Below, in pieces: positions 2,759 through 56,205 of a stretch of DNA of 64,000 nt (positions are counted from its first letter, which is position 1; every line of letters begins with the position of its first letter). The notes below the pieces were generated by a model that saw only the letters and a list, made by a program, of their open reading frames with translations, had not been told where the DNA came from and made no database searches. The position numbers and the translations under genes were made by a program. The DNA lies in contig CAYZJP010000002.1 in NCBI GenBank assembly GCA_964478755.1, forward strand, positions 9,984 through 73,983, given 5' to 3'. This DNA is from an uncultured Klebsiella sp. Its GTDB lineage: Bacteria; Verrucomicrobiota; Verrucomicrobiia; Limisphaerales; SXTU01.

Positions 2759-3586
2759 CTAAAAGTTGAAGAAGTTGGTGATGCCCAGTGTGGCGTTGTT
2801 GATGAAGCGCCCGTCGGCGTTGGGGCCGCTCACCGGTTTGGCCTTCGCGACGCTGCCGTCCATGAAGGTCCACATCAGGCGTCCGCCGTGGGCTCCGCGC
2901 TTGGTGATCTGGCCGGTGTAGCGCGTGGGGTCATCGTAGTAGCCGGGCGGGGCGTTGACGTCGATGCCGACGACGTTGGTGCTCATGTCCGAGGTGACGA
3001 AGTTGCGCGTGGGCTGCGGCCACTGCTGGACGCGCTTGGAGGGTGCCCAGGCCGAGGCCGCACCAGTGAAGGCGTTCACGCCGGTGAGCCGGCCCCACAT
3101 GAGGGTGACATTCGCGTTGCGCTAGTCCACGGGCCGGTCGTTGAAACGGAGTTCGTAGCGGCTGACGGCGTTGAGGAAACTGCCGGTGAAGTGCGACTCC
3201 CCATACAATGCCGGACAGCGGGCGACCTTCGCCTCCTGTGCGGTCGTGGGCCACGTGTTGGTGGCCGCCAGGCCAAGGTAGCCGCGCAGAAAGAAGGCTC
3301 CATAGACGCGGTTGGCCAGATCCAAGTCTGCGCGCATGATGCGGGGATAGAACGCGGTGCCCATGCCGCCCGGGAGGAAGTCATCGTGGTCGCTGTGATA
3401 CAGGTTCACCGCGAGAATGACCTGCTTGCTGTTGTTCGCGCACACGCCGCCCCGGCCGGCCTGCTTGGCCTTGGCCAGCGCGGGCAGAAGCATCCCCGCG
3501 AGGATCGCGATGATGGCGATGACGACGAGTAATTCTATGAGCGTGAAACCACCAAGTTTGAGTGAGGCTGGGCGCATGGTTTTCAT
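2759..3586 (-). pseudogene. Prepilin-type N-terminal cleavage/methylation protein with C-terminal H-X9-DG motif, interrupted by an in-frame TAG at 3122-3124
   Basis: [25 protein letters not shown] at the N-terminus. ORFs 3122..3586 and 2759..3100 are in the same frame (...DRPVD*RNANVTLMWG...). The distal part carries HGGRLMWTFMDG. Confidence 0.8.
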
Positions 3587-17238: not shown

Positions 17239-17448
17239 GCAAGCCGGAGGCTTGCCAGCCATTAGCCGGGGGTTGAGCGTCAGCGATACCCCCGGTCAAC
17301 GGGCCGGGCGCAGCACCGCGTGAGCGGTGCCAGAGCGACTGCGGCGGCCGCTGCGACGCCTTCGGCGTCGTTGACTTCTCGCCGTAGTCCGGGGGTATCG
17401 TCGCTAGGCTCCTCAACCTCCGGCTAATGGCTGGCATCGCTCCGCGAT
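17239..17448. repeat. REP-doublet (REPIN)-like long inverted-repeat element
   Basis: Arms TGCCAGCCATTAGCCGGGGGTTGAG and CTCAACCTCCGGCTAATGGCTGGCA, inner arms CGATACCCCCGG/CCGGGGGTATCG, a GGA-loop mini-hairpin at each end, internal GTGA- and TTCG-loop hairpins. Confidence 0.75.
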
Positions 17449-20898: not shown

Positions 20899-20927
20899 AT
20901 CATTGAGACTCGCACATCGGTAACGAC

Positions 20928-21076
20928 CTCTCATTAGCACCGGGCTTCAGCCCGGTGTGAACGGCTTCGGCGGCGGAAAACCGTTTCAACGGTTTTCCAC
21001 CTTTCAGCAAGCCGTTGAAACGGCTTGCCTCGACGCCGGGCCGCAACACCCGGCTGAAGCCGGGTGCTAATGAGAG
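20928..21076. repeat. Palindromic MITE/REP-like element, family A (intergenic copy)
   Basis: TIRs CTCTCATTAGCACCGGGCTTCAGCCCGGTGT and ACACCCGGCTGAAGCCGGGTGCTAATGAGAG; two internal palindromes; related copy at 35568. Confidence 0.9.
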
Positions 21077-21115
21077 GGAGAGCGCGTTGTCCATTTTCAC
21101 AAGCTTCGACAAATC

Positions 21116-26822: not shown

Positions 26823-26858
26823 TTGCGATTGCCCGCTCGAGCTGCGGCGAATGGTTTC

Positions 26859-27006
26859 GGGTGGAACGGCCAACTTGGCCGTTCTCGGCGGCAACCTGCC
26901 GCCGAGCTTCGGCACAGTGAACACTCGAGTTGATTGGTGCGCTCTCGGCGCAGCACGAGCGGCGGGCGGGCCGCCCGCCGCAACGGGCCGGTGGCCCGTT
27001 CCACCC
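26859..27006. repeat. 148-bp palindromic MITE/REP-like element, family B (copy 1)
   Basis: TIR GGGTGGAACGG.../...CCGTTCCACCC; four internal hairpins; ungapped match to 37493..37640. Confidence 0.92.
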
Positions 27007-27042
27007 AGGCAACTCCGGCACTATTCCGTTTGAATCGTATGC

Positions 27043-33900: not shown

Positions 33901-34041
33901 GCGGCGTGAAGTTCGAGCCAATCCGCCCGCACGACTCACCGCCGCTTGCTCAAGGTTCGCCCACATTTGCGAAGCTTGGCCGTGCGATGCAGTTGTCCTG
34001 CGGCTGGTGAACGCTTACGCTGCGCGGCAAGTCTGTTCACC

Positions 34042-37000
34042 ATGCACCGCCACGCCGCCTTTCGCCTGCTGTTCGTCACCGCTGTCGTCTGCCTGGTTAA
34101 TGCGCCGCCGTGTCGCGCCGCTGTGAGCCACGGCTTCCGCGTGCCGGATGGCTTCGAGGTCTCGCTCTACGCCAGCGACGATCTTGCGCACGACATCTTC
34201 TCCATGACCACGGATGCCAAGGGCCGCATCGTTGTCGCGGGCAAGGACTACGTGAAAATCCTCCACGACACCGACGGCGACGGGAAGGCCGACAGGGCCA
34301 CGCTCTTCGTGAAGGCCAGCAAGTCCGGAGCGCATGGAATGTATTTCGAGGGCAACGACCTCATCATGAACGGCGACGGTGGCATCCGCCGCTGGCGCGA
34401 CACGGACGGCGACGGCGTGGCCGATGGCGAACCGGAGTTCTGGCTGCGCACCGAACGCGACGGCGAGCACTCGGCGAATGGGATTGTGAAGGGACCGGAC
34501 GGCTGGTTCTACATGATCTGCGGCAACGACGCGGGCATCTCCAGCGAACACGCGAAACTCCCCGGCTCGCCGATCAAACAAGTCAACGCCGGTGCGCTCG
34601 TCCGCATTTCACCCGACGGCAAGACGAGCGAAGTTCTCGCGCACGGCTTCCGCAACCCCTACGACCTCGACTTCCATCCCTTCGGAAACATTTTCACCTA
34701 CGACGCCGATGGGGAGCGCGATCACCATCTTCCGTGGTATTCTGGCACGCGCATCTTCGACATCGCCATCGGCGCGCACCACGGCTGGGTGCTCAAGGGC
34801 TGGAGCCACGCTTGGAACCGCCCGCCCGCCTGGCCCGACAATACCGAGCGCCTCTGGGAAGTCGGGCGCGGCTCGCCCACGGGCGTCTTCGTGTATCGCC
34901 ACCGCGCATTCCCCGAGCGCTACCGCAACGGCTTCTTCGCGCTCTGCTGGACTTACGGACGGCTCTACTTTTTCCCGCTAAAACGGCGCGGCAGCACGTT
35001 CGACACGCAGATGGAAATCTTCATGGAGACGGCGGGCGACACCGGCTTCGCGCCCGTGGATGCCGTGGTCGGCCCCGACGGCGATGTCTTCGTCGCCATC
35101 GGCGGACGCGGCACCATCGGCAGCGTCTTCCGCGTGAAATACCGTGCCGGCGACTTGCAGTCGCCGTCCGTGGGCAACAGCAGCACAAACGGCGGCGACT
35201 ACAAGTCGCCAGCACACGTCTTACGCGAAGTCCTCTCCGCCCCGCAAACGCTCTCAAGCTGGTCCCGCGCGAAGTGGGTGCCGCTCGCGAAGGAGTTGGG
35301 CAAGCCCGCCTTCGAGCAAGCCGCGCTGAACGCCAAACTCCCGCTCGTCGAACGCATCCGTGCAGTGGAGGTTCAAGTTGAACTTTTCGACAACCTCACC
35401 GCTGAACACGCGCGCAAGCTCACCAGTTCCAGCGAACCCGAACTCATCGCCCGTGTCGCATGGGCGCTCGCTCGCAGTGTGGAAGCAGAACCGGCTACCA
35501 AGCTCCTCGCCGAACTCACCCGCCGCGATGACCCGCGCATCGCCCGCGCGGCGTGGGAGGCGCTGATCTCATTAGCACCCGGCTTCAGCCGGGTGGAAAC
35601 GTCCGGCAGCGACGAGAAGCCGTTTAAACGGCTTCCATCCGATGCGTCCGGTGACACCGGGCTGAAGTCCGGTGCTAATAAGAAACTTCCTTCGCCGGAT
35701 TGGTTTCGCGGCCTGAACTCGGACGACCGCCGCGTCCGCACCGCCACGGTTCTCGCAGCCCGGGCAATCGGCCCGGACATATTCGTCCGCACCGCGCCGC
35801 CCCGCCAGCTCACCGAGCGTCAGCGCCTCGGCATCCTGCGCATCTACGGCCCTGAGCGCGGCGACGATCCGAACTGGCTGGCGCACTATTTCAACAACGC
35901 CGCCTTCGTCGCCGCGACCTCGCGCGACCCGGTGACGCGGCTCGACGCCGTGCGACTGCTTCAGCTCGGCCTCGGCGATGTGAAGCTCGTGCAGGACAAG
36001 CCTGACACCTACGATGGCTTCGTCGCCAGCCGGACGGAAGAAATCCCCACGCCGCTGTGCCAGCACGTTGTCGAGCGTGTCGCACCCGCGTTCCCCACCG
36101 GCGACGCCGACCTCGACCGCGAACTCGGCCGTCTGCTCGCCATGCTTTCCGCCGACTCGCCCGGCCTGCTCGCGCGTGTCACCACCAAGCTCACCGACAC
36201 CAGCCCCGTTGAGGACGACATTCATTTCCTCATGGTTGCTGCGCGGCTGCCGACGCCCCGCGACGCGGAAAGCACCGCACGCATCGCGCACGCGGTTGCA
36301 AACTTGCAGTTGAAAATGCTGGCGGGCGGAAAGGAACCAAGCCACTTCTGGCCGGAACGTGTCGGCAATATGTTCGCGCGGCTGCTACTCCAAGACCCCG
36401 GCTTGCCCGACGCCTTGATTCACTCGACCAGCTTTTGCCTCGCCGACCATTCGCTGCTTGGTCAAAAACTGCCCGCTGCGAACCAGCCAGCAGCCGCGCT
36501 CAAACTGTTCGAGCGCACGACAAGCTGCCTGACCGTCAAGGGTTACACTTGGACCCCTGAGCTTGTTGGCTTTCTAAGCCTTCTGCCCGACACGGTTCTC
36601 TTGCCGGAGATTCGCCGGCAGTGGAAAGAGTATCCGCCACTGCGCGACGCGTTCATCCGCGTGCTCGCGCGTGCTCCGCAGGTCGAGGACCGCGCGCGCT
36701 TCGTAACCGCGCTCGGCTCGTTTCAGCCTGCCGTGGTGGAACTCGCCGCGAAGTCGCTCGCGCAACTCAGCGGCGAAGCCGCGCCGAACGAATTCGCCGC
36801 TGCGCTGGCTTCGCTGCGCCGCGAGTGCGCTGCGCTGAAGGAGAAGGCCGCTCGCACTGCGTTGGCAGAGTTGCTCGCAAAGTGGAGCGGGCAGAACATC
36901 GCCGTCACCGAGACTGGCGATTTGTTCAAGGCCTACGCGCCGTGGTTCGATTGGTTCGCCAAGGCGCATCCCGCCGCGGCGAAAGAGCTGCTGGGCGGCA

Positions 37001-37458
37001 ATGAGGACACGGCGGCGTTTCTAAAGCGCCTGCCTGCCATCGCGTGGGACGCGGGTGACGCCCAGCGCGGCCAACGGCTTTACGAGGAGCGGGCGTGCCA
37101 TCGCTGCCATTCCAGCAGCACGCGCATCGGGCCGGACCTGACGGGCGTGGCGAGCCGGCTGTCACGCGAAGATTTGTTCATCGCGATCCTCGATCCTAGC
37201 CGCGACATCTCACCGGCGTATGTGCCGAAGCTGCTTACCACGAAGTCCGGCTCGACCTACACGGGCTTCCTCGTCTATGATTCGCCGACGGCCAAACTCG
37301 TGCAGACCGGTCCCGACACAACGGTGCGGCTTACCGGGGACGAAGTGACGAGCGTGGTGGACACGCGGGTGTCCTTGATGCCGATGGGTTTGCTAAACGG
37401 GCTGAAGGACGGTGAAGTTGCCGACTTCTACGCGTTCCTGAAGACGCTGAAGAAGTAG
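34042..37458 (+). CDS. PVC-type membrane-bound dehydrogenase-like protein (beta-propeller, HEAT-like repeats, C-terminal heme-binding domain) with two in-frame palindromic insertions
   Basis: GFRVPDGFEVSLYA, GFRNPYDLDF, GRGSPTG, GDAQRGQRLY...CHRCH...IGPDLT, VSLMPMGL. Confidence 0.85.
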   Translation: MHRHAAFRLLFVTAVVCLVNAPPCRAAVSHGFRVPDGFEVSLYASDDLAHDIFSMTTDAKGRIVVAGKDYVKILHDTDGDGKADRATLFVKASKSGAHGMYFEGNDLIMNGDGGIRRWRDTDGDGVADGEPEFWLRTERDGEHSANGIVKGPDGWFYMICGNDAGISSEHAKLPGSPIKQVNAGALVRISPDGKTSEVLAHGFRNPYDLDFHPFGNIFTYDADGERDHHLPWYSGTRIFDIAIGAHHGWVLKGWSHAWNRPPAWPDNTERLWEVGRGSPTGVFVYRHRAFPERYRNGFFALCWTYGRLYFFPLKRRGSTFDTQMEIFMETAGDTGFAPVDAVVGPDGDVFVAIGGRGTIGSVFRVKYRAGDLQSPSVGNSSTNGGDYKSPAHVLREVLSAPQTLSSWSRAKWVPLAKELGKPAFEQAALNAKLPLVERIRAVEVQVELFDNLTAEHARKLTSSSEPELIARVAWALARSVEAEPATKLLAELTRRDDPRIARAAWEALISLAPGFSRVETSGSDEKPFKRLPSDASGDTGLKSGANKKLPSPDWFRGLNSDDRRVRTATVLAARAIGPDIFVRTAPPRQLTERQRLGILRIYGPERGDDPNWLAHYFNNAAFVAATSRDPVTRLDAVRLLQLGLGDVKLVQDKPDTYDGFVASRTEEIPTPLCQHVVERVAPAFPTGDADLDRELGRLLAMLSADSPGLLARVTTKLTDTSPVEDDIHFLMVAARLPTPRDAESTARIAHAVANLQLKMLAGGKEPSHFWPERVGNMFARLLLQDPGLPDALIHSTSFCLADHSLLGQKLPAANQPAAALKLFERTTSCLTVKGYTWTPELVGFLSLLPDTVLLPEIRRQWKEYPPLRDAFIRVLARAPQVEDRARFVTALGSFQPAVVELAAKSLAQLSGEAAPNEFAAALASLRRECAALKEKAARTALAELLAKWSGQNIAVTETGDLFKAYAPWFDWFAKAHPAAAKELLGGNEDTAAFLKRLPAIAWDAGDAQRGQRLYEERACHRCHSSSTRIGPDLTGVASRLSREDLFIAILDPSRDISPAYVPKLLTTKSGSTYTGFLVYDSPTAKLVQTGPDTTVRLTGDEVTSVVDTRVSLMPMGLLNGLKDGEVADFYAFLKTLKK
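35144..35215. repeat. 72-bp palindromic element, family C, in frame within the CDS
   Basis: GTGCCGGCGACTTGCAGTCGCC ... GGCGACTACAAGTCGCCAGCAC inverted arms, each itself a hairpin; translates as AGDLQSP...GDYKSPA. Confidence 0.75.
35568..35682. repeat. Family A palindromic element, in frame within the CDS
   Basis: CTCATTAGCACCCGGCTTCAGCCGGGTG ... CACCGGGCTGAAGTCCGGTGCTAATAAG with core AAGCCGTTTAAACGGCTT; same ends and core as 20928..21076. Confidence 0.9.
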
Positions 37459-37492
37459 GGGGCGGTCTCGCTGCGGCGCCACCAACTGTTCA

Positions 37493-37640
37493 GGGTGGCA
37501 CGGCCAACTTGGCCGTTCTCGGCGGCAACCTGCCGCCGAGCTTCGGCACAGCCAACGTTCAAACTGATTGGGGTGCTCTGGGCGCAGTGTGAGCGGCGGG
37601 TGAGTCGCCCACCGCAACGGGCCAGTGGCCCGTTCCACCC
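37493..37640. repeat. 148-bp palindromic element, family B (copy 2)
   Basis: 19 differences in 148 nt versus 26859..27006 by manual ungapped alignment; lies between convergent genes. Confidence 0.92.
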
Positions 37641-37663
37641 AAACTCGGCCGAAGCGGTTCGGT

Positions 37664-41606: not shown

Positions 41607-42446
41607 TTAATCACCGAGGGCTGAGTTGAAAACGGTGGCATTACTCGGGTCATTCGCCCAAGTCGCTATGGTTCCAGCCGCCGTCAGCAGCCCAAAATCT
41701 GCTGAGGTCATTTTGTCGCCCTTCCGATACTCAGCATGGCCGTCCACCATGAGGAGGTTGCCGCCCTTTTCGTGGATGACGGTGTAATTCTCGGGCAACC
41801 CCAACCAGTTGACCGTGTAGGGCGGCGCAGGCTGGAAGAGGTAATGCCAGTAGCGATACTGGTTGGCCGCCTGCCGGAAAGGGCGGAGGTAAGCGATGTC
41901 TCGGCGGTTGTAGAGTTCCTGCATATAGACCATTGCGGCTGGATTAGGTATGCGCGAGATGCGCCGATCCACAGGCCGATTCGGAGTCACCGTGGTGTCG
42001 ACGTAGCCCATGACGACGGCATTCCCCAAGTAGCTTGTAACGTTCGGGGAGGTGGTTTCCAGCGTTACGCCTGTCTGTGGATCCGTGGCTGGCGTGGACG
42101 GGCAGGTGAACATCTTGGCGATCGAAGGCCCGGTCGGTGAGCCACCGAGATACGGAACCAAGGAGCCGAGATAATTGGGAGTGCCAGAGGTGACGAAGTT
42201 CAGGACGGCGTCGTTCCCGACGGGCGTCTTGTCATCGCTGTTGTCTGCGTAGAGCGTGAGGGCGAGCCCGCACTGCTTGATGCTGTTGAGACACTGCGTC
42301 TGCTTGGCCTTGTTCTTCGCCTTCGCGAGCGCGGGCAGGAGCATTCCGGCCAGGATCGCAATGATGGCGATGACGACGAGCAGTTCGATGAGCGTGAAGG
42401 CTGCCCGGCCTGCGCGGAGGGGCGTGGCGGTTGCGGTCGGTTTCAT
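41607..42446 (-). CDS. Prepilin-type N-terminal cleavage/methylation protein with H-X9-DG motif (intact)
   Basis: [50 protein letters not shown]. Confidence 0.9.
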
Positions 42447-49204: not shown

Positions 49205-49235
49205 AGGCCGCCGTCATCGGCGGCCTTTGTGCTTT
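49205..49235 (+). terminator. Intrinsic terminator
   Basis: AGGCCGCCG-TCAT-CGGCGGCCT followed by TTGTGCTTT. Confidence 0.6.
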
Positions 49236-49304
49236 CCGAAGCGCACTCCGCGCTTGGAAATCTCGTGCAACTCCGCTCCCCTTTGCTACGTCCAACAAAC
49301 CACC

Positions 49305-52300
49305 ATGCCCGTCTCGAAGTCTTTGATTCAGCAGAGCGCCGGCCTCCTGGCCCGCGTCGGCGCGCTCTTACTGATCGCTGTGGTGAGCGCCGCCGCCGCC
49401 GACCGCGCGCGTTCCGTGGACTTCGAGCGCGAAATTCTTCCCATCTTCCAACGTGTCTGCTTCGAGTGCCACGATGCAAAGCAGAAGAAGGGCAAACTTC
49501 GTCTCGACTCCCGCGTCGCCGCCCTCCAGAAGCCCGGCATCATCGTTCCCGGCAATTCCGCGCGGAGCGAGCTTGTCCGCCGCATCACATTGCCTAAGGG
49601 CCATGACGATGTTATGCCCAATCGTGGCGAGCCGCTCTCCCAATCACAGGCCGACCTCATCAAGACCTGGATGGACCAGGGCGCGGTCTGGCCGGAGAGC
49701 CTGCAAGCCACGAAGCACTGGGCCTACGTGAAACCTGTTCGTCCCGCCGTCCCTTCAATCGCCAATCGCCAATCCTCCGCCGGCAATCCCATTGACGCCT
49801 TCGTCCTCGCCCGCCTCCAGCAGGAAGGTCTCAAGCCTTCTCCCGAAGCCCCGTCTGAAATCCTTGCCCGACGCCTCTGCCTCGATCTCATCGGATTGCC
49901 GCCCTCCCCTGCGCAAACAGAAGCCTTCGCACAGCGCGCCGCCCACAACCCTCAACAGGCTGTCGAGAAACTTGTGGACGAGCTCCTCGCCTCGCCGCAG
50001 TTCGGCGTCCGCTGGGCACGCCCGTGGCTCGACTACGCGCGCTACGCGGACTCGCACGGGTTTCAACGCGACGACTTTCGCGACCTTTGGCCGTATCGCG
50101 ACTGGGTGGTGAACGCGCTGAATGCCGATATGCCATTCACGCAGTTCACCACCGAGCAGCTCGCGGGCGATTTGCTGCCGAACGCCACCGAGTCGCAGAA
50201 GATTGCCACCGGCTTCAACCGCAGCGCGCCCACAAACGTCGAGGCCGGCACCGACCCGGAGGAGACGCGCGTGAACCAGATTCACGACCGCGTGAACACG
50301 CTCGGCATGACCTGGCTCGGCGTCACGCTGGAGTGCTGCCAGTGTCATGACCACAAATATGATCCGTTCACCCAGCGCGACTACTACGGCCTCTTCGCCT
50401 TCTTCAACAACACCGCGCTCGAAGCCGACCGCACGAACCCCAAGGTGCCCGGCTCGATCCAGTTCAAAGGCCCGACGATAGATCTCGCTGACGCAGCGAC
50501 GCAGGCCGAGCGCGTGAAGCTGAACACGCAAATCGCCGAAGTGAATGCGAAGCTTGCTGTGTTGGAAAAATCCGCCGCAGCGGGTCAACTCGAATGGGAA
50601 ATGACGCTTGGCAAAAAGGTCGCCGAAGCGCCGAAACAATATGCGCTCGACATCGCGAAGTTCGAGTCCACCGGCGGCGCGACGCATGAAATCCTCACCG
50701 ACAAATCCGTGCTCATCAGTGGCGAGCCTGCGCCTGACAAGGATACTTACATCGTCGAAGTGCGCACGAAGATCACGGGCATTCGTGGCTTCAAACTCGA
50801 AACGCTCACGGATGATTCACTGCCCGGCAAAGGCCCTGGTCGCGGTGACGAGAAGCGACCTAACTTTGTGCTGAACAACTTTACCGTCACCGCTGCGCCG
50901 GCTAACAAACCAGAGCAGGCGAAGCCCGTGAAATTTTCATCGGCACAGGCGTCGTTCTCGCAGGCGAATTATCCGGTGGCGAATTTGCTCAACACCGACA
51001 ACACCGCGAAGGGCGGCTGGGCCATCAATCCGAAGTTTCACGAACCGCATTGGGCTGTGCTGGAAACCGCCGAGCCGGTCGGCTTTGCCGAAGGCACTGT
51101 GTTGAAGTTCAAGCTGGAGCAAGGCTTCGGCGCGAGCCGGACGATTGGCCGGCTCCGCTTGTGCGCCATCACGGGAAACGTCGGTGGCAAGGCGCTGCCG
51201 GTGGAACTGACCGAGGCGCTTGCGGTTCCGGTCGCCAGGCGAACGGCGAAGCAGAAGAAATTCGTGATGGAATTTCAATTGAAGGAGAACCCCGAGTTCG
51301 CGCGGCTGGAGAAGGAGAGGAGCCGGCTGGGTTTGCAGTTGTTGAAAATCAAACCAAGCACCACGCTGGTCATGCAGGAGGACTCGCCGCGTATGAGCGC
51401 GGTTTTCCAACGCGGCGATTTCCGCACGCCCGGCGAGAAGGTCGAGCCGCACACACCGGCGGTGCTGCATTCTTTGGGGAGCGCACGCGTCACGCGTGCT
51501 GACTTCGGCGTTCCGCCGAAATCTTCGTCCATCAATTTGAGTCCTGAACGCGCGTCGGGCGAGACGTCCGAGGCGGCACGCGAGACGCGTGCGCTCCCCA
51601 ATCGCCTGGACCTCGCGCAGTGGCTCGTGAGCCGCGAGAACCCGCTCGTCGCACGGGTCGTGGTGAACCGTTGGTGGGCGGAATTGTTCGGTCACGGCCT
51701 CGTCACCACGCCGGAGGATTTCGGCATCAAGGGCGAGTTGCCGACCCACCCCGAGTTGCTCGACTGGCTTGCGTGCGAGTTCATGGACAACGGCTGGTCG
51801 ATGAAGAAGACGCTCAAGACCATCGTGATGAGCGCGACCTACCGGCAGTCGTCGCGCGTCACGCCGGAGTCGTTCGCGCGCGATGACCAGAATCTCCTCT
51901 ACGCGCGTGGCCCTCGGCATCGGCTCGAAGCGGAGATGATTCGCGACAACGCGCTCGCGATTTCCGGTCTGTTGAGCTTCAAGCAGGGCGGCGCGCCCAT
52001 CAAACCGTATCAGCCTGACGGCCTGTGGGTGAAAGTTGGCGGCCAGCGTTACGACTACGAAGTCAGCCCCGGCGAGGAAAAATACCGTCGCGGCCTCTAC
52101 GTCGTGTGGAAACGCGGCGCGCCGTATCCGAGCTTTGTGAACTTCGACGCCAACAGCCGTCTCGCCTGCCGCGTGAAGCGCCCGCGCTCGAACACGCCGC
52201 TGCAAGCCCTCACGCTGATGAACGACCCGGTCTATGTCGAAGCCGCAATGGCCTTCGCCAAGCGCGTGCTGACGGAGAAGCCCACGGCCAACACCGACGA

Positions 52301-52529
52301 GCGCATCGCCCATGCCTTCCGGCTCGCGATGGCCCGCGCCCCGCGCGCTGGAGAACTTGCCACGCTCACGCAACTCCTGGAGGTGTCGCGCGCGAAGGAC
52401 GCGAAGGCAGCGAAGGAGTTCATCGCCAACTTCGCGCTGCCCACGGGCGTCACCGCCGAGGAATTCACCGCGTGGTATGCGGTGGCGGCGGCGCTGCTGA
52501 ACCTGGACGAAACAATCACAAAGGGATAA
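49305..52529 (+). CDS. Planctomycete cytochrome c + DUF1549 + discoidin-like insert + DUF1553 protein with an in-frame palindromic insertion
   Basis: CFECH, FGVRWARPWLDYARYADS, ECCQCHDHKYDP, ARVVVNRWW, SNTPLQALTLMN, LLNLDETITKG. Confidence 0.9.
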   Translation: MPVSKSLIQQSAGLLARVGALLLIAVVSAAAADRARSVDFEREILPIFQRVCFECHDAKQKKGKLRLDSRVAALQKPGIIVPGNSARSELVRRITLPKGHDDVMPNRGEPLSQSQADLIKTWMDQGAVWPESLQATKHWAYVKPVRPAVPSIANRQSSAGNPIDAFVLARLQQEGLKPSPEAPSEILARRLCLDLIGLPPSPAQTEAFAQRAAHNPQQAVEKLVDELLASPQFGVRWARPWLDYARYADSHGFQRDDFRDLWPYRDWVVNALNADMPFTQFTTEQLAGDLLPNATESQKIATGFNRSAPTNVEAGTDPEETRVNQIHDRVNTLGMTWLGVTLECCQCHDHKYDPFTQRDYYGLFAFFNNTALEADRTNPKVPGSIQFKGPTIDLADAATQAERVKLNTQIAEVNAKLAVLEKSAAAGQLEWEMTLGKKVAEAPKQYALDIAKFESTGGATHEILTDKSVLISGEPAPDKDTYIVEVRTKITGIRGFKLETLTDDSLPGKGPGRGDEKRPNFVLNNFTVTAAPANKPEQAKPVKFSSAQASFSQANYPVANLLNTDNTAKGGWAINPKFHEPHWAVLETAEPVGFAEGTVLKFKLEQGFGASRTIGRLRLCAITGNVGGKALPVELTEALAVPVARRTAKQKKFVMEFQLKENPEFARLEKERSRLGLQLLKIKPSTTLVMQEDSPRMSAVFQRGDFRTPGEKVEPHTPAVLHSLGSARVTRADFGVPPKSSSINLSPERASGETSEAARETRALPNRLDLAQWLVSRENPLVARVVVNRWWAELFGHGLVTTPEDFGIKGELPTHPELLDWLACEFMDNGWSMKKTLKTIVMSATYRQSSRVTPESFARDDQNLLYARGPRHRLEAEMIRDNALAISGLLSFKQGGAPIKPYQPDGLWVKVGGQRYDYEVSPGEEKYRRGLYVVWKRGAPYPSFVNFDANSRLACRVKRPRSNTPLQALTLMNDPVYVEAAMAFAKRVLTEKPTANTDERIAHAFRLAMARAPRAGELATLTQLLEVSRAKDAKAAKEFIANFALPTGVTAEEFTAWYAVAAALLNLDETITKG
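51474..51601. repeat. Palindromic element, family D, in frame within the CDS
   Basis: TIRs TTGGGGAGCGCACGCGTCACGCGTGC and GCACGCGAGACGCGTGCGCTCCCCAA; translates as LGSARVTRADFGVPPK...AARETRALP. Confidence 0.85.
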
Positions 52530-55469: not shown

Positions 55470-56205
55470 CTACGGACCCCATAGCCGGTCAACGTTCTTG
55501 ATCCAATCAACGCGTGACACCGCACGCGCGGAACCGTCAGCGAAACCGCAGGTGGCCTTGTCATTGGGACTGTCCAGCTTTGGATTGCTGCGGCTGTGAT
55601 AGCAGGCGAAGCCGTTGTCCACGTAGTTGTAAGGCGGCGTTGGGTTGATGCCGGAGTTACTGTCCATGATGCCGTCTCCATCGAGATCCAAGTTGAACAC
55701 CCAGACGTTGGGACTCCACACCAAGTTCGTTGAGCCGGCCACAAGCATGGTCTGCGGCGCGATCAGGTTCAGCCGCGTCGAACCGTTAAGCCCCGGGTCG
55801 TTGCCCATGCAGGCGAAGACGCGACCGTAGTTCACGCTGTAGTTGTTGTTCTGCTGGGTCTTCGGGCAGGTCAGCAGCCGACCACCAAAATTACTGCCGG
55901 CCCCGGCGGCATTGGTGTTGCCCCCCGATATAAGGGCCGATGGTCTGCCACCACCAGTCGGTTGGCGAGGTCGCGCCACTCGCGGAAAAGCCGTAGCCAA
56001 AGTGCGGGAGTTGCTCTTCGTGGTCGCCCGCATAAAGGATCATGCCCAACGCGATTTGCTTCTTGTTGTTCAGGCACTTGGACGTAAGCGATTTGTCCTG
56101 CGCCTTGCTCAAGGCAGGCAGGAGCATACCGGCAAGGATGGCGATAATCGCGATGACAACGAGGAGTTCGATCAGGGTAAAGGCTGAAGAAGCGCTCGTT
56201 TTCAT
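55470..56205 (-). pseudogene. Prepilin-type N-terminal protein frameshifted (+1) at a G6 tract (55921-55926)
   Basis: [15 protein letters not shown]...TIGPYIGG in one frame; [20 protein letters not shown]...GFADGSA in another. Removing one G restores a single 244-aa ORF. Confidence 0.8.

Follow-up and report, generated by a model that had tools for sequence, protein, structure and literature searches.

Short stem-loop repeats arranged as inverted dimers have been described by Di Nocera, De Gregorio and Rocco (2013, BMC Genomics 14:522, PMC3733652), together with Y1 transposase genes that are flanked either by repetitive extragenic palindromes (REPs) or by partly self-complementary terminal inverted repeats (TIRs), the copies of which form repeat families (TIRtrons/TIRYTs). 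In the same work, REPs situated wholly within open reading frames (ORFs) and encoding at least 20-30 residues are commonest in the verrucomicrobium Opitutus terrae, double REP insertions occur within one ORF, and differing REPs occupy approximately the same site of orthologous recB genes. Every one of these features is also seen with the repeat described here, a 117-nt palindrome (family A) at positions 35567-35683 of a 64-kb stretch of DNA from an uncultured member of the Limisphaerales (64,000 nt in full; the window), which lies in frame within the gene of a PVC-type heme-binding CxxCH protein. The segment most probably represents a short, non-autonomous version of a mobile palindrome, translated as part of a tolerated protein loop. 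As in the TIRtrons/TIRYTs, a flanked Y1 gene is accompanied in family A by a family of dimer repeats; however, the family A arm starts with TTAG, instead of GTAG or CGTC, and the published cases belong to other families and sit in other genes and lineages (here, uncultured Limisphaerales).

The REPIN-RAYT system, that is, REP doublets and their REP-associated tyrosine transposases (Bertels & Rainey 2011, PMC3116915; Nunvar 2010), likewise consists of two inverted hairpin units and a spacer within a larger hairpin, and has a Y1 HUH transposase gene that is likewise bracketed by inverted units. Its transposase is single-copy, with many non-coding copies of the repeat per genome, a ratio that family A seems to approach. 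The REP unit is a short imperfect palindrome with a conserved leading tetranucleotide, GTAG; the unit of family A consists of a tetranucleotide, TTAG or TTAA across the copies, followed by an 8-bp stem with a 4-nt loop. The REPIN transposase belongs to the RAYT clade, whereas that of family A scores as IS200/IS605, and REPINs are extragenic by definition, whereas the copy at 35567-35683 is coding. By its architecture, as read from the sequence, family A is REPIN-like, or TIRtron-like in the terms of Di Nocera and colleagues. It shares the Y1 HUH transposase family with IS200/IS605 elements such as IS608 and ISDra2, as well as the subterminal hairpins and, as far as 82 copies show, the lack of a target-site duplication. 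Insertion of these elements takes place 3' of a fixed left target, TTAC for IS608 and TTGAT for ISDra2. Family A has a fixed pentanucleotide on the left, TCTCA, which pre-exists at empty sites of the host gene but is mirrored by TGAGA on the right; the ends of IS608 are distinct, whereas those of family A are symmetric (TCTCA...TGAGA, inverted arms). A further difference from IS200/IS605 is the dominance of non-autonomous palindromic derivatives in family A. A classical miniature inverted-repeat transposable element derived from a DDE transposon does not fit, since there is no target-site duplication and the transposase of the parent is of the Y1 type.

The textbook case of in-frame palindromic insertion is that of the Rickettsia palindromic elements (RPEs; reviewed in PMC10969869). 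RPEs resemble family A in being palindromic repeats of approximately 100-150 bp, in several families, that lie in frame and compatibly with the fold in unrelated functional genes; the phylum is different, and sequence homology is not expected. RPE peptides have been proposed as conserved peptides, whereas the conservation of family A is at the nucleotide level. To our knowledge, no transposase is known for the RPEs, and neither PMC10969869 nor PMC3733652 mentions one, whereas family A has an identified Y1 partner. Rickettsia palindromic elements are reportedly the subject of work by Ogata in 2000 and 2002 and by Claverie and Ogata in 2003. The initial annotation of the window, made from the sequence alone, had read the repeat as RPE-like. 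This holds for the phenomenon, but the closest mechanistic relatives are REP/REPIN-type elements with a Y1 (IS200-like) transposase. In-frame insertions of the REP/RPE type, Verrucomicrobia included, are already known (PMC3733652), and a full-text literature search found nothing specific to Limisphaerales. Compared with the published intragenic REPs, the translated element is here tied directly to a transposase-bearing parent, and an orthologue series displays gain, replacement and decay at fixed loops; both points are new, as are the logic of a single open frame with a 3n length and conservation at the nucleotide rather than the peptide level.

Architecture of family A and its transposase-bearing form

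The element comprises two 24-nt hairpin arms and a central hairpin in the order TCTCA-TTAGCACCCGGCTTCAGCCGGGTG ... GAAGCCGTTTAAACGGCTTC ... CACCGGGCTGAAGTCCGGTGCTAA-TAAGA (Table 1). It had initially been placed at 35568-35682, a location that stands, while the full extent is 35567-35683. The arms of this copy are 86% complementary across 29 nt, and the 117-nt segment has a computed folding energy of -65.9 kcal/mol (z = -5.95), with none of 200 shuffled sequences as stable. The 24-nt arm TTAGCACCSGGCTTCAGCCSGGTG is found at four sites in the window (20934, 21047, 35572 and 35655), against an expectation of 0 from 100 shuffles. With an offset of 4 nt, the arm also aligns with its own reverse complement, and each arm therefore forms a hairpin by itself, with the pattern TTAG followed by CACCSGGC-TTCA-GCCSGGTG (8-bp stem, 4-nt loop).

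The element is read as SLAPGFSRVETSGSDEKPFKRLPSDASGDTGLKSGANK followed by K (residues 510-548), without a stop or frameshift in the 1138-aa ORF, exactly the peptide that the initial annotation had quoted. Each strand of the 117-nt element has a single frame free of stops, and the host gene uses the one on its coding strand; in the unused frames, TAG closes one at the left end and TAA-TGA closes another at the right end. Translation of the insert is suggested by the frame together with the pattern of selection described below.

More than 111 stretches of the repeat family were found in public genomes, mostly in metagenome-assembled genomes (MAGs) of Verrucomicrobiota/Limisphaerales. Eighty-two paired copies from the sampled loci, with 105-160 nt between the arm ends, have TCTCA as their left flank and TGAGA as their right one; TCTCA precedes nearly all 82, and the transposase-carrying copies as well. 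These copies fall into length classes of approximately 117 nt and 147-170 nt, and neither a target-site duplication nor any flanking direct repeat was found around the 82. Most copies are extragenic, and approximately 5 of the 82 sampled are situated inside real genes. At the intergenic locus 20927-21077 of the window, relatives have a 4-10-nt spacer and a different gene start, and no comparable empty site was found.

In two loci (L048 and L077), located by arm pairs approximately 600 nt apart, family A arms and inner hairpins bracket an ORF of 150 aa. The product matches PF01797 (Y1_Tnp) with E = 8e-20 and 1e-21 and the IS200/IS605 model NF033573 with 55-61.5 bits (cutoff 55); its best relatives in the PDB are the TnpA proteins of ISDra2 and IS608, and it contains an HVHVL motif and a YI..Q tyrosine motif. 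On these profile matches and motifs, the ORF is assigned to the Y1 HUH transposases of the IS200/IS605 family. A regular-expression search of the sampled loci for the RAYT motif, with a pattern that was too strict, returned nothing. Among 65 loci with relatives of this transposase, an A-like arm is present on both sides in 25 and on at least one side in 45. In most arm-bearing loci, the left arm lies approximately 70-120 nt before the transposase start (160-270 nt in a few) and the right arm approximately 55-75 nt past the stop. Furthermore, the stems covary between the transposase loci (CCCGGC/GCCGGG, CCCTGC/GCGGGG, CCCAAC/GTTGGG and CCGGGC/GCCCGG), and the inner hairpin AAACCGTTTCAACGGTTT is kept in some of the more distant relatives. 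Each MAG, fragmentary as these assemblies are, contains at least one or two transposase loci and at least 4-7 copies with exact arms.

The full-length form, of approximately 0.74 kb, consists of TCTCA, the outer arm, an inner hairpin, the transposase gene, an inner hairpin, the outer arm and TGAGA. The long non-autonomous form (approximately 150 nt) equals the full-length form without the transposase gene, and the short form (117 nt) has a single inner hairpin. Since the arms and inner hairpins flank a Y1 transposase gene, family A is read as a non-autonomous deletion derivative of this element.

The host gene, its orthologues and the pattern of selection

The ORF that holds the element starts at 33946 or 34042 and ends at 37458 on the plus strand. 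Its product combines a DUF7133 beta-propeller, a HEAT-like helical repeat and a C-terminal cytochrome c domain; TIGR02604 matches the N-terminus with 135 bits (cutoff 122), TIGR02603 matches the C-terminus with 79 bits (cutoff 68), and the DUF7133 and cytochrome c models also match. The nearest relatives, in MAGs of uncultured Limisphaerales (Verrucomicrobiota), are at most 83% identical over the full length, and the genes up- and downstream are syntenic across the orthologous loci. In the AlphaFold model (mean predicted local distance difference test score, pLDDT, 71), residues 513-548 of the family A insert have a pLDDT below 50, lack secondary structure and are situated between helices 498-510 and 554-558. 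The placement within the helical-repeat region and the expected loop, both put forward in the initial annotation, are borne out by this model. Residues 370-389, from a different palindrome in the same gene (family C), score below 50 as well and are likewise devoid of secondary structure; strand 361-367 precedes them and helix 390-398 follows. The long internal segments below 50 that lie at a domain or repeat boundary are these two inserts. According to the model, the approximately 39 added residues are probably disordered, between two helices of the HEAT-like repeat.

The orthologues were compared in a protein alignment of 32 sequences and in the DNA of 18 loci. The insert falls in a variable loop bounded by the conserved AWEAL(I/Q)S and PDW(F/Y)RGL blocks. 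In every outgroup and in many close relatives, this position contains a native loop of approximately 10-18 residues, such as ISRTPSAEAT, VSMSSSAKTK or LSLPSNLAATAR, and the native loops of close relatives begin with SLP/ISR, as in the outgroups; the indel anticipated from the single sequence is thereby seen as presence and absence. The 117-nt element with identical junctions is found in the window, L119, L133, L134, L135 and the more distant L131, whose protein is 63% identical overall to that of the window. Among several insert-bearing orthologues, L131 included, the insert peptides are 56-82% identical. In L114, the family A copy is heavily decayed and the host gene is intact.

Many other orthologues contain a family B palindrome (GTAG...CTAC; GTAGCAGCCGACGTGAGGAGGCTC ... 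GAGCCTCCTCACGTCGGCTGCTAC) directly after the same Ser codon, encoding SVAADVRRLHS..NQSLLTSAAT, and some have further inserts at the loop that are not clearly palindromic. In L125 (834-904) and L120 (5479-5549), tandem AATTCGG heptamers (NSEFGIRNSE) replace the left half of family B, and the right arm is kept. A shared TCTCA target was rejected as the cause of the co-location of families A and B, since family B has no conserved flank.

The interiors of five core copies are 72-88% identical to one another, compared with 39-62% to other short copies, which indicates that the five derive from one insertion. The L131 interior is 51-63% identical to the core copies, and its sisters L132 and L118 hold an outgroup-like native loop; the element was therefore gained there separately or by allelic transfer. 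A recombination scan of L131 against L132 gave a local dip in identity that is confounded by misalignment of the loop. In a neighbour-joining tree, the A, B and empty states are interleaved, and a count of independent gains rests on this poorly resolved tree. Judged from these sequences, the family A insertion is old and common to at least five lineages. The initial annotation had described an RPE-like process active in the lineage; in-frame insertion is confirmed, but 'active' goes further than the sequences of this old insertion do. The orthologues of the heme protein range from 1074 to 1178 aa, and palindromic inserts account for much of the length variation among orthologues in uncultured Verrucomicrobiota.

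Selection was examined as the proportion of sites at codon positions 1, 2 and 3 that vary among four insert-bearing orthologues; the conservation statistics as a whole rest on four to six phylogenetically related sequences. The fractions are 0.08/0.05/0.37 upstream of the insert (codons 30-360) and 0.29/0.17/0.65 downstream (codons 556-1138), a pattern of purifying selection at the protein level on both sides, as far as codon positions reveal it. In the insert, the fractions are 0.26/0.18/0.33 (arms only, 0.11/0.11/0.32; interior only, 0.40/0.25/0.35), without codon periodicity. Of 39 third positions in the insert, 13 vary, significantly fewer than the 437 of 683 flanking ones (Fisher P = 2.5e-4). 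The left arm is nearly invariant across six orthologous copies, and at synonymous sites of the flanking gene the orthologues share 55-72% identity. Among these copies, 96% of the pairing is kept in the central hairpin, with two of its eight pairs changed on both sides (compensatory), and the interior stem is 72% paired. Given the lack of codon periodicity and the low third-position change, conservation would act on the DNA palindrome and not on the peptide. Conservation of the segment as protein in distant orthologues, which the initial annotation had named as refuting its reading, was not found; what is conserved lacks codon periodicity and lies at the nucleotide level. This conservation can apparently be lost, as the sequence of L114 indicates: element identity is 54%, compared with 55% at fourfold degenerate sites, which is the neutral level.

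The in-gene cases among the 82 sampled copies are approximately five, independent of one another, with a proper GC1/GC2/GC3 signature. The hosts of in-frame copies are the glycine dehydrogenase GcvP, a DUF7133/ThuA heme protein, an MbnP-CCP_MauG peroxidase, in which the insert splits a domain, and a Ser/Thr kinase-WD40 protein. Insertion of one family into at least four unrelated genes of related genomes is in line with the general in-frame process first proposed. In the other hosts, the peptide reads ..SLAPGFS(R/P)V...TGLKPGANE.. or is a frame variant of it. In the case of GcvP, the orthologues (76-92% identity) measure 957-1076 aa and vary at three loops, where several alternative inserts are seen at each. 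Nine of 22 GcvP orthologues contain a family A insert of 48 residues, and the others read DHASRITFHAS; the alternative loop inserts (L061, P0129-P0248, Limisphaerales) include QASRLSPSKSENQKEVRQAGSPSY, LPASCRQNTSQIQNCRQDAGSTF, KVGSSRCDDRTPQRGVPT and RLVGRDVPIAP..GAQGTARPT. The suggestion that several unrelated element families take part is likewise substantiated, as such families occupy the same loops in the heme protein orthologues and in GcvP, and one lies in another gene of the window.

A profile built from seven insert peptides yielded 12 candidates, all hypothetical ORFs of 64-74 aa; it missed known orthologues and is uninformative on breadth.

Explanations for the in-frame palindrome

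In the favoured explanation, that of a mobile palindrome translated in a tolerated loop, the transposase, if IS608, ISDra2 and REP-RAYT are taken as a guide, would act in trans on hairpins of single-stranded DNA and would have placed the copy just after the Ile-Ser codons ATC-TCA of the loop codon block. Empty alleles read ATCTCA followed by AGG, so ATC-TCA was already part of the ancestral loop, and its presence there fits insertion 3' of a fixed pentanucleotide, as in IS608/ISDra2. The 3n length and the use of the sole stop-free frame would have left the gene open, and the extra residues would form a predicted disordered loop between HEAT-like helices, where an insertion may be tolerated. 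With the frame open and the loop disordered, the insertion could be tolerated and inherited by at least five lineages. The insert peptide would have no function of its own, and the DNA palindrome would be what persists: the arms and the central hairpin may be conserved by selection or by hairpin-templated correction, while the spacer is subject to drift, and the entire element appears to have decayed in one lineage.

Several observations weigh against this explanation. No transposase gene lies within the 64-kb window, and for this reason mobilisation in this organism is something that we infer from relatives. The 150-aa protein scores 21.7-34.6 bits against the RAYT model NF047646, far from its cutoff of 80. 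Even in full-length copies, both ends are flanked by TCTCA/TGAGA, unlike the asymmetric ends of IS608. Filled alleles lack native loop codons, approximately 4-6 at the family A site and approximately 11 at the family C site, and family B alleles lack approximately 7, in a comparison of L115, L126, L132 and L119; the events thus resemble replacement and not pure addition. No clean empty site was found for any copy, and the TCTCA at 35567-35571 may be either a conserved outer terminus or a target sequence. In addition, the third-position conservation of the insert could reflect an insert younger than the divergence of the gene, or its spread by recombination.

A second explanation, which overlaps the first without ruling it out, is that the palindrome has been exapted and that the host keeps it for a role at the nucleic-acid level within the coding region. 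It might, for instance, pause ribosomes as an mRNA hairpin where two domains meet, determine nuclease attack or stability, or serve as a structural site in the DNA, with the peptide as a by-product. The arms are almost invariant in six orthologous copies against the divergence of synonymous sites in the flanks, third positions of the insert change half as often as those of the flanks, the central hairpin contains compensatory pairs, and both inserts of the host gene lie at a domain or repeat boundary. On the other hand, the L114 copy has reached neutral divergence in an intact gene, many orthologues have no insert or an unrelated one, only 72% of the interior stem is paired, hairpin-templated repair can preserve the symmetry of a palindrome without selection, and the six sequences are few and phylogenetically related; exaptation is regarded as unlikely. 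A mRNA hairpin of -66 kcal/mol could also impede ribosomes or attract RNase III, and the gene might be disabled or the insert untranslated, as a pseudogene, as two separately translated halves, or through removal of the hairpin at the RNA level. This is very improbable in view of 1138 codons without a stop or frameshift, the intact C-terminal heme-binding domain (TIGR02603 above its cutoff), the purifying-selection pattern in both halves of four insert-bearing orthologues, and a multiple-of-three length with the single open frame in use, which would be needless in an untranslated segment; the same holds for GcvP, a housekeeping enzyme. The last alternative is an ancestral, lineage-specific protein loop, of which the intergenic 'copies' are fragments or chance resemblances. 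Although the peptide identity of 56-82% among several orthologues, one of them only 63% identical overall, is compatible with such a loop, the segment is missing from all outgroups and from many close relatives with the SLP/ISR loop, the same DNA is intergenic in the window, occurs more than 80 times in other contexts and brackets a transposase gene, and the segment has no codon periodicity, so that this origin has next to no probability.

A more far-reaching proposal, for which the chances are small, is that the two loops of the host protein and the three loops of GcvP are recurrent landing pads for unrelated palindromes and that the host retains a DNA or RNA hairpin there. Entry or replacement may have taken place repeatedly at the same codon boundary across lineages, each event displacing part of the native loop. 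If true, integration into coding DNA would be directed by structure or sequence, for example by Y1 insertion after TCTCA on single-stranded DNA or by insertion of one element into another, and translated REPIN-like elements would have a nucleic-acid-level function at domain boundaries. As for the translated mobile palindrome itself, the locus provides an orthologue-resolved case of a selfish palindrome becoming part of a protein, with empty, filled, replaced and decayed states of one loop, and the translated element is linked to an identifiable IS200/IS605 Y1 transposase. In annotation, structure and homology work, such low-confidence loops should be treated with caution as mobile DNA and not as lineage-specific functional motifs. 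That the arms are conserved at the nucleotide level within coding sequence hints, in a way open to testing, at some importance of the hairpin.

Other palindromes of the host gene and the window

Table 1. Positions of the palindromic repeats, their parts and the host gene in the window
Feature	Position	Strand	Remarks
Family A element, long form	20927..21077	.	151 nt; two inner hairpins; intergenic between two minus-strand genes
Host gene, PVC-type heme-binding CxxCH protein	34042..37458	+	1138 aa; intact either side of the insert
Second in-frame palindrome, family C	35144..35215	+	arms GGCGACT-TGC-AGTCGCC, themselves hairpins; translated AGDLQSPSVGNSSTNGGDYKSPA
Family A element, short form	35567..35683	+	117 nt = 39 codons, in frame, residues 510-548
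TCTCA pentanucleotide abutting the left arm	35567..35571	+	overlaps the ancestral Ile-Ser codons ATC TCA
Left arm	35572..35595	+	TTAG, then its own hairpin CACCCGGC-TTCA-GCCGGGTG; REP-like unit
Central hairpin GAAGCCGTTTAAACGGCTTC	35616..35635	+	counterpart of the hairpin beside the transposase gene in full-length elements
Right arm	35655..35678	+	hairpin CACCGGGC-TGAA-GTCCGGTG, then CTAA; 3 mismatches to the pattern
TAAGA	35679..35683	+	degenerate version of the conserved right flank TGAGA
Third palindromic family, 44-nt arms with GCACGCG-TCA-CGCGTGC	51474-51601		in frame in ORF 49227-52529 (+), 1100 aa

The family C palindrome at 35144-35215, which makes the family A copy the second element of its gene as the initial annotation had stated, lies between the last propeller strand and the first helix. 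At this site, 13 of 18 orthologues, including the closest, L119 and L133, have a native 48-nt loop (TGKLPVEKPxxxPLxQ); family C was therefore gained after those splits, or laterally. On the orthologue sequences, its insertion would be later than that of family A, or a lateral acquisition. Family C is also present at the same site in L113 and L121, and families C and D are rare among the sampled loci. The palindrome at 51474-51601 is translated as LGSARVTRADFGVPPKSSSINLSPERASGETSEAARETRALPN.

A multi-hairpin element of approximately 150 nt, bounded by GGGTGGAACGG...CCGTTCCACCC, lies at 37488-37641 and 26854-27007, with copies 86-90% identical. The former starts 30 nt past the stop codon of the host gene, so that, with families A and C, three element families touch this gene. 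A search of the whole window against Rfam gave nothing at the gathering score, with only chance hairpin matches far below the threshold, and no tRNA genes were found in the window.

At 17245-17444, a 200-nt palindromic element has 33-nt arms (CGGAGGCTTGCCAGCCATTAGCCGGGGGTTGAG) and an inner inverted repeat (17284-17302 / 17382-17400). Three 84-nt stretches (3464-3547, 42315-42398 and 56098-56181) are 75-87% alike, and their reverse complement, read by eye, seemingly contains a prepilin-type N-terminal motif; in that case, the three would be starts of paralogous genes instead of mobile repeats. Several contigs on which the repeat or the orthologous gene was found, L005, L006, L015, L002, L020, L040 and L060 among them, bear titles such as 'uncultured Klebsiella', 'Bifidobacterium', 'Akkermansia muciniphila' or 'Proteobacteria' and are probably mislabelled MAGs.

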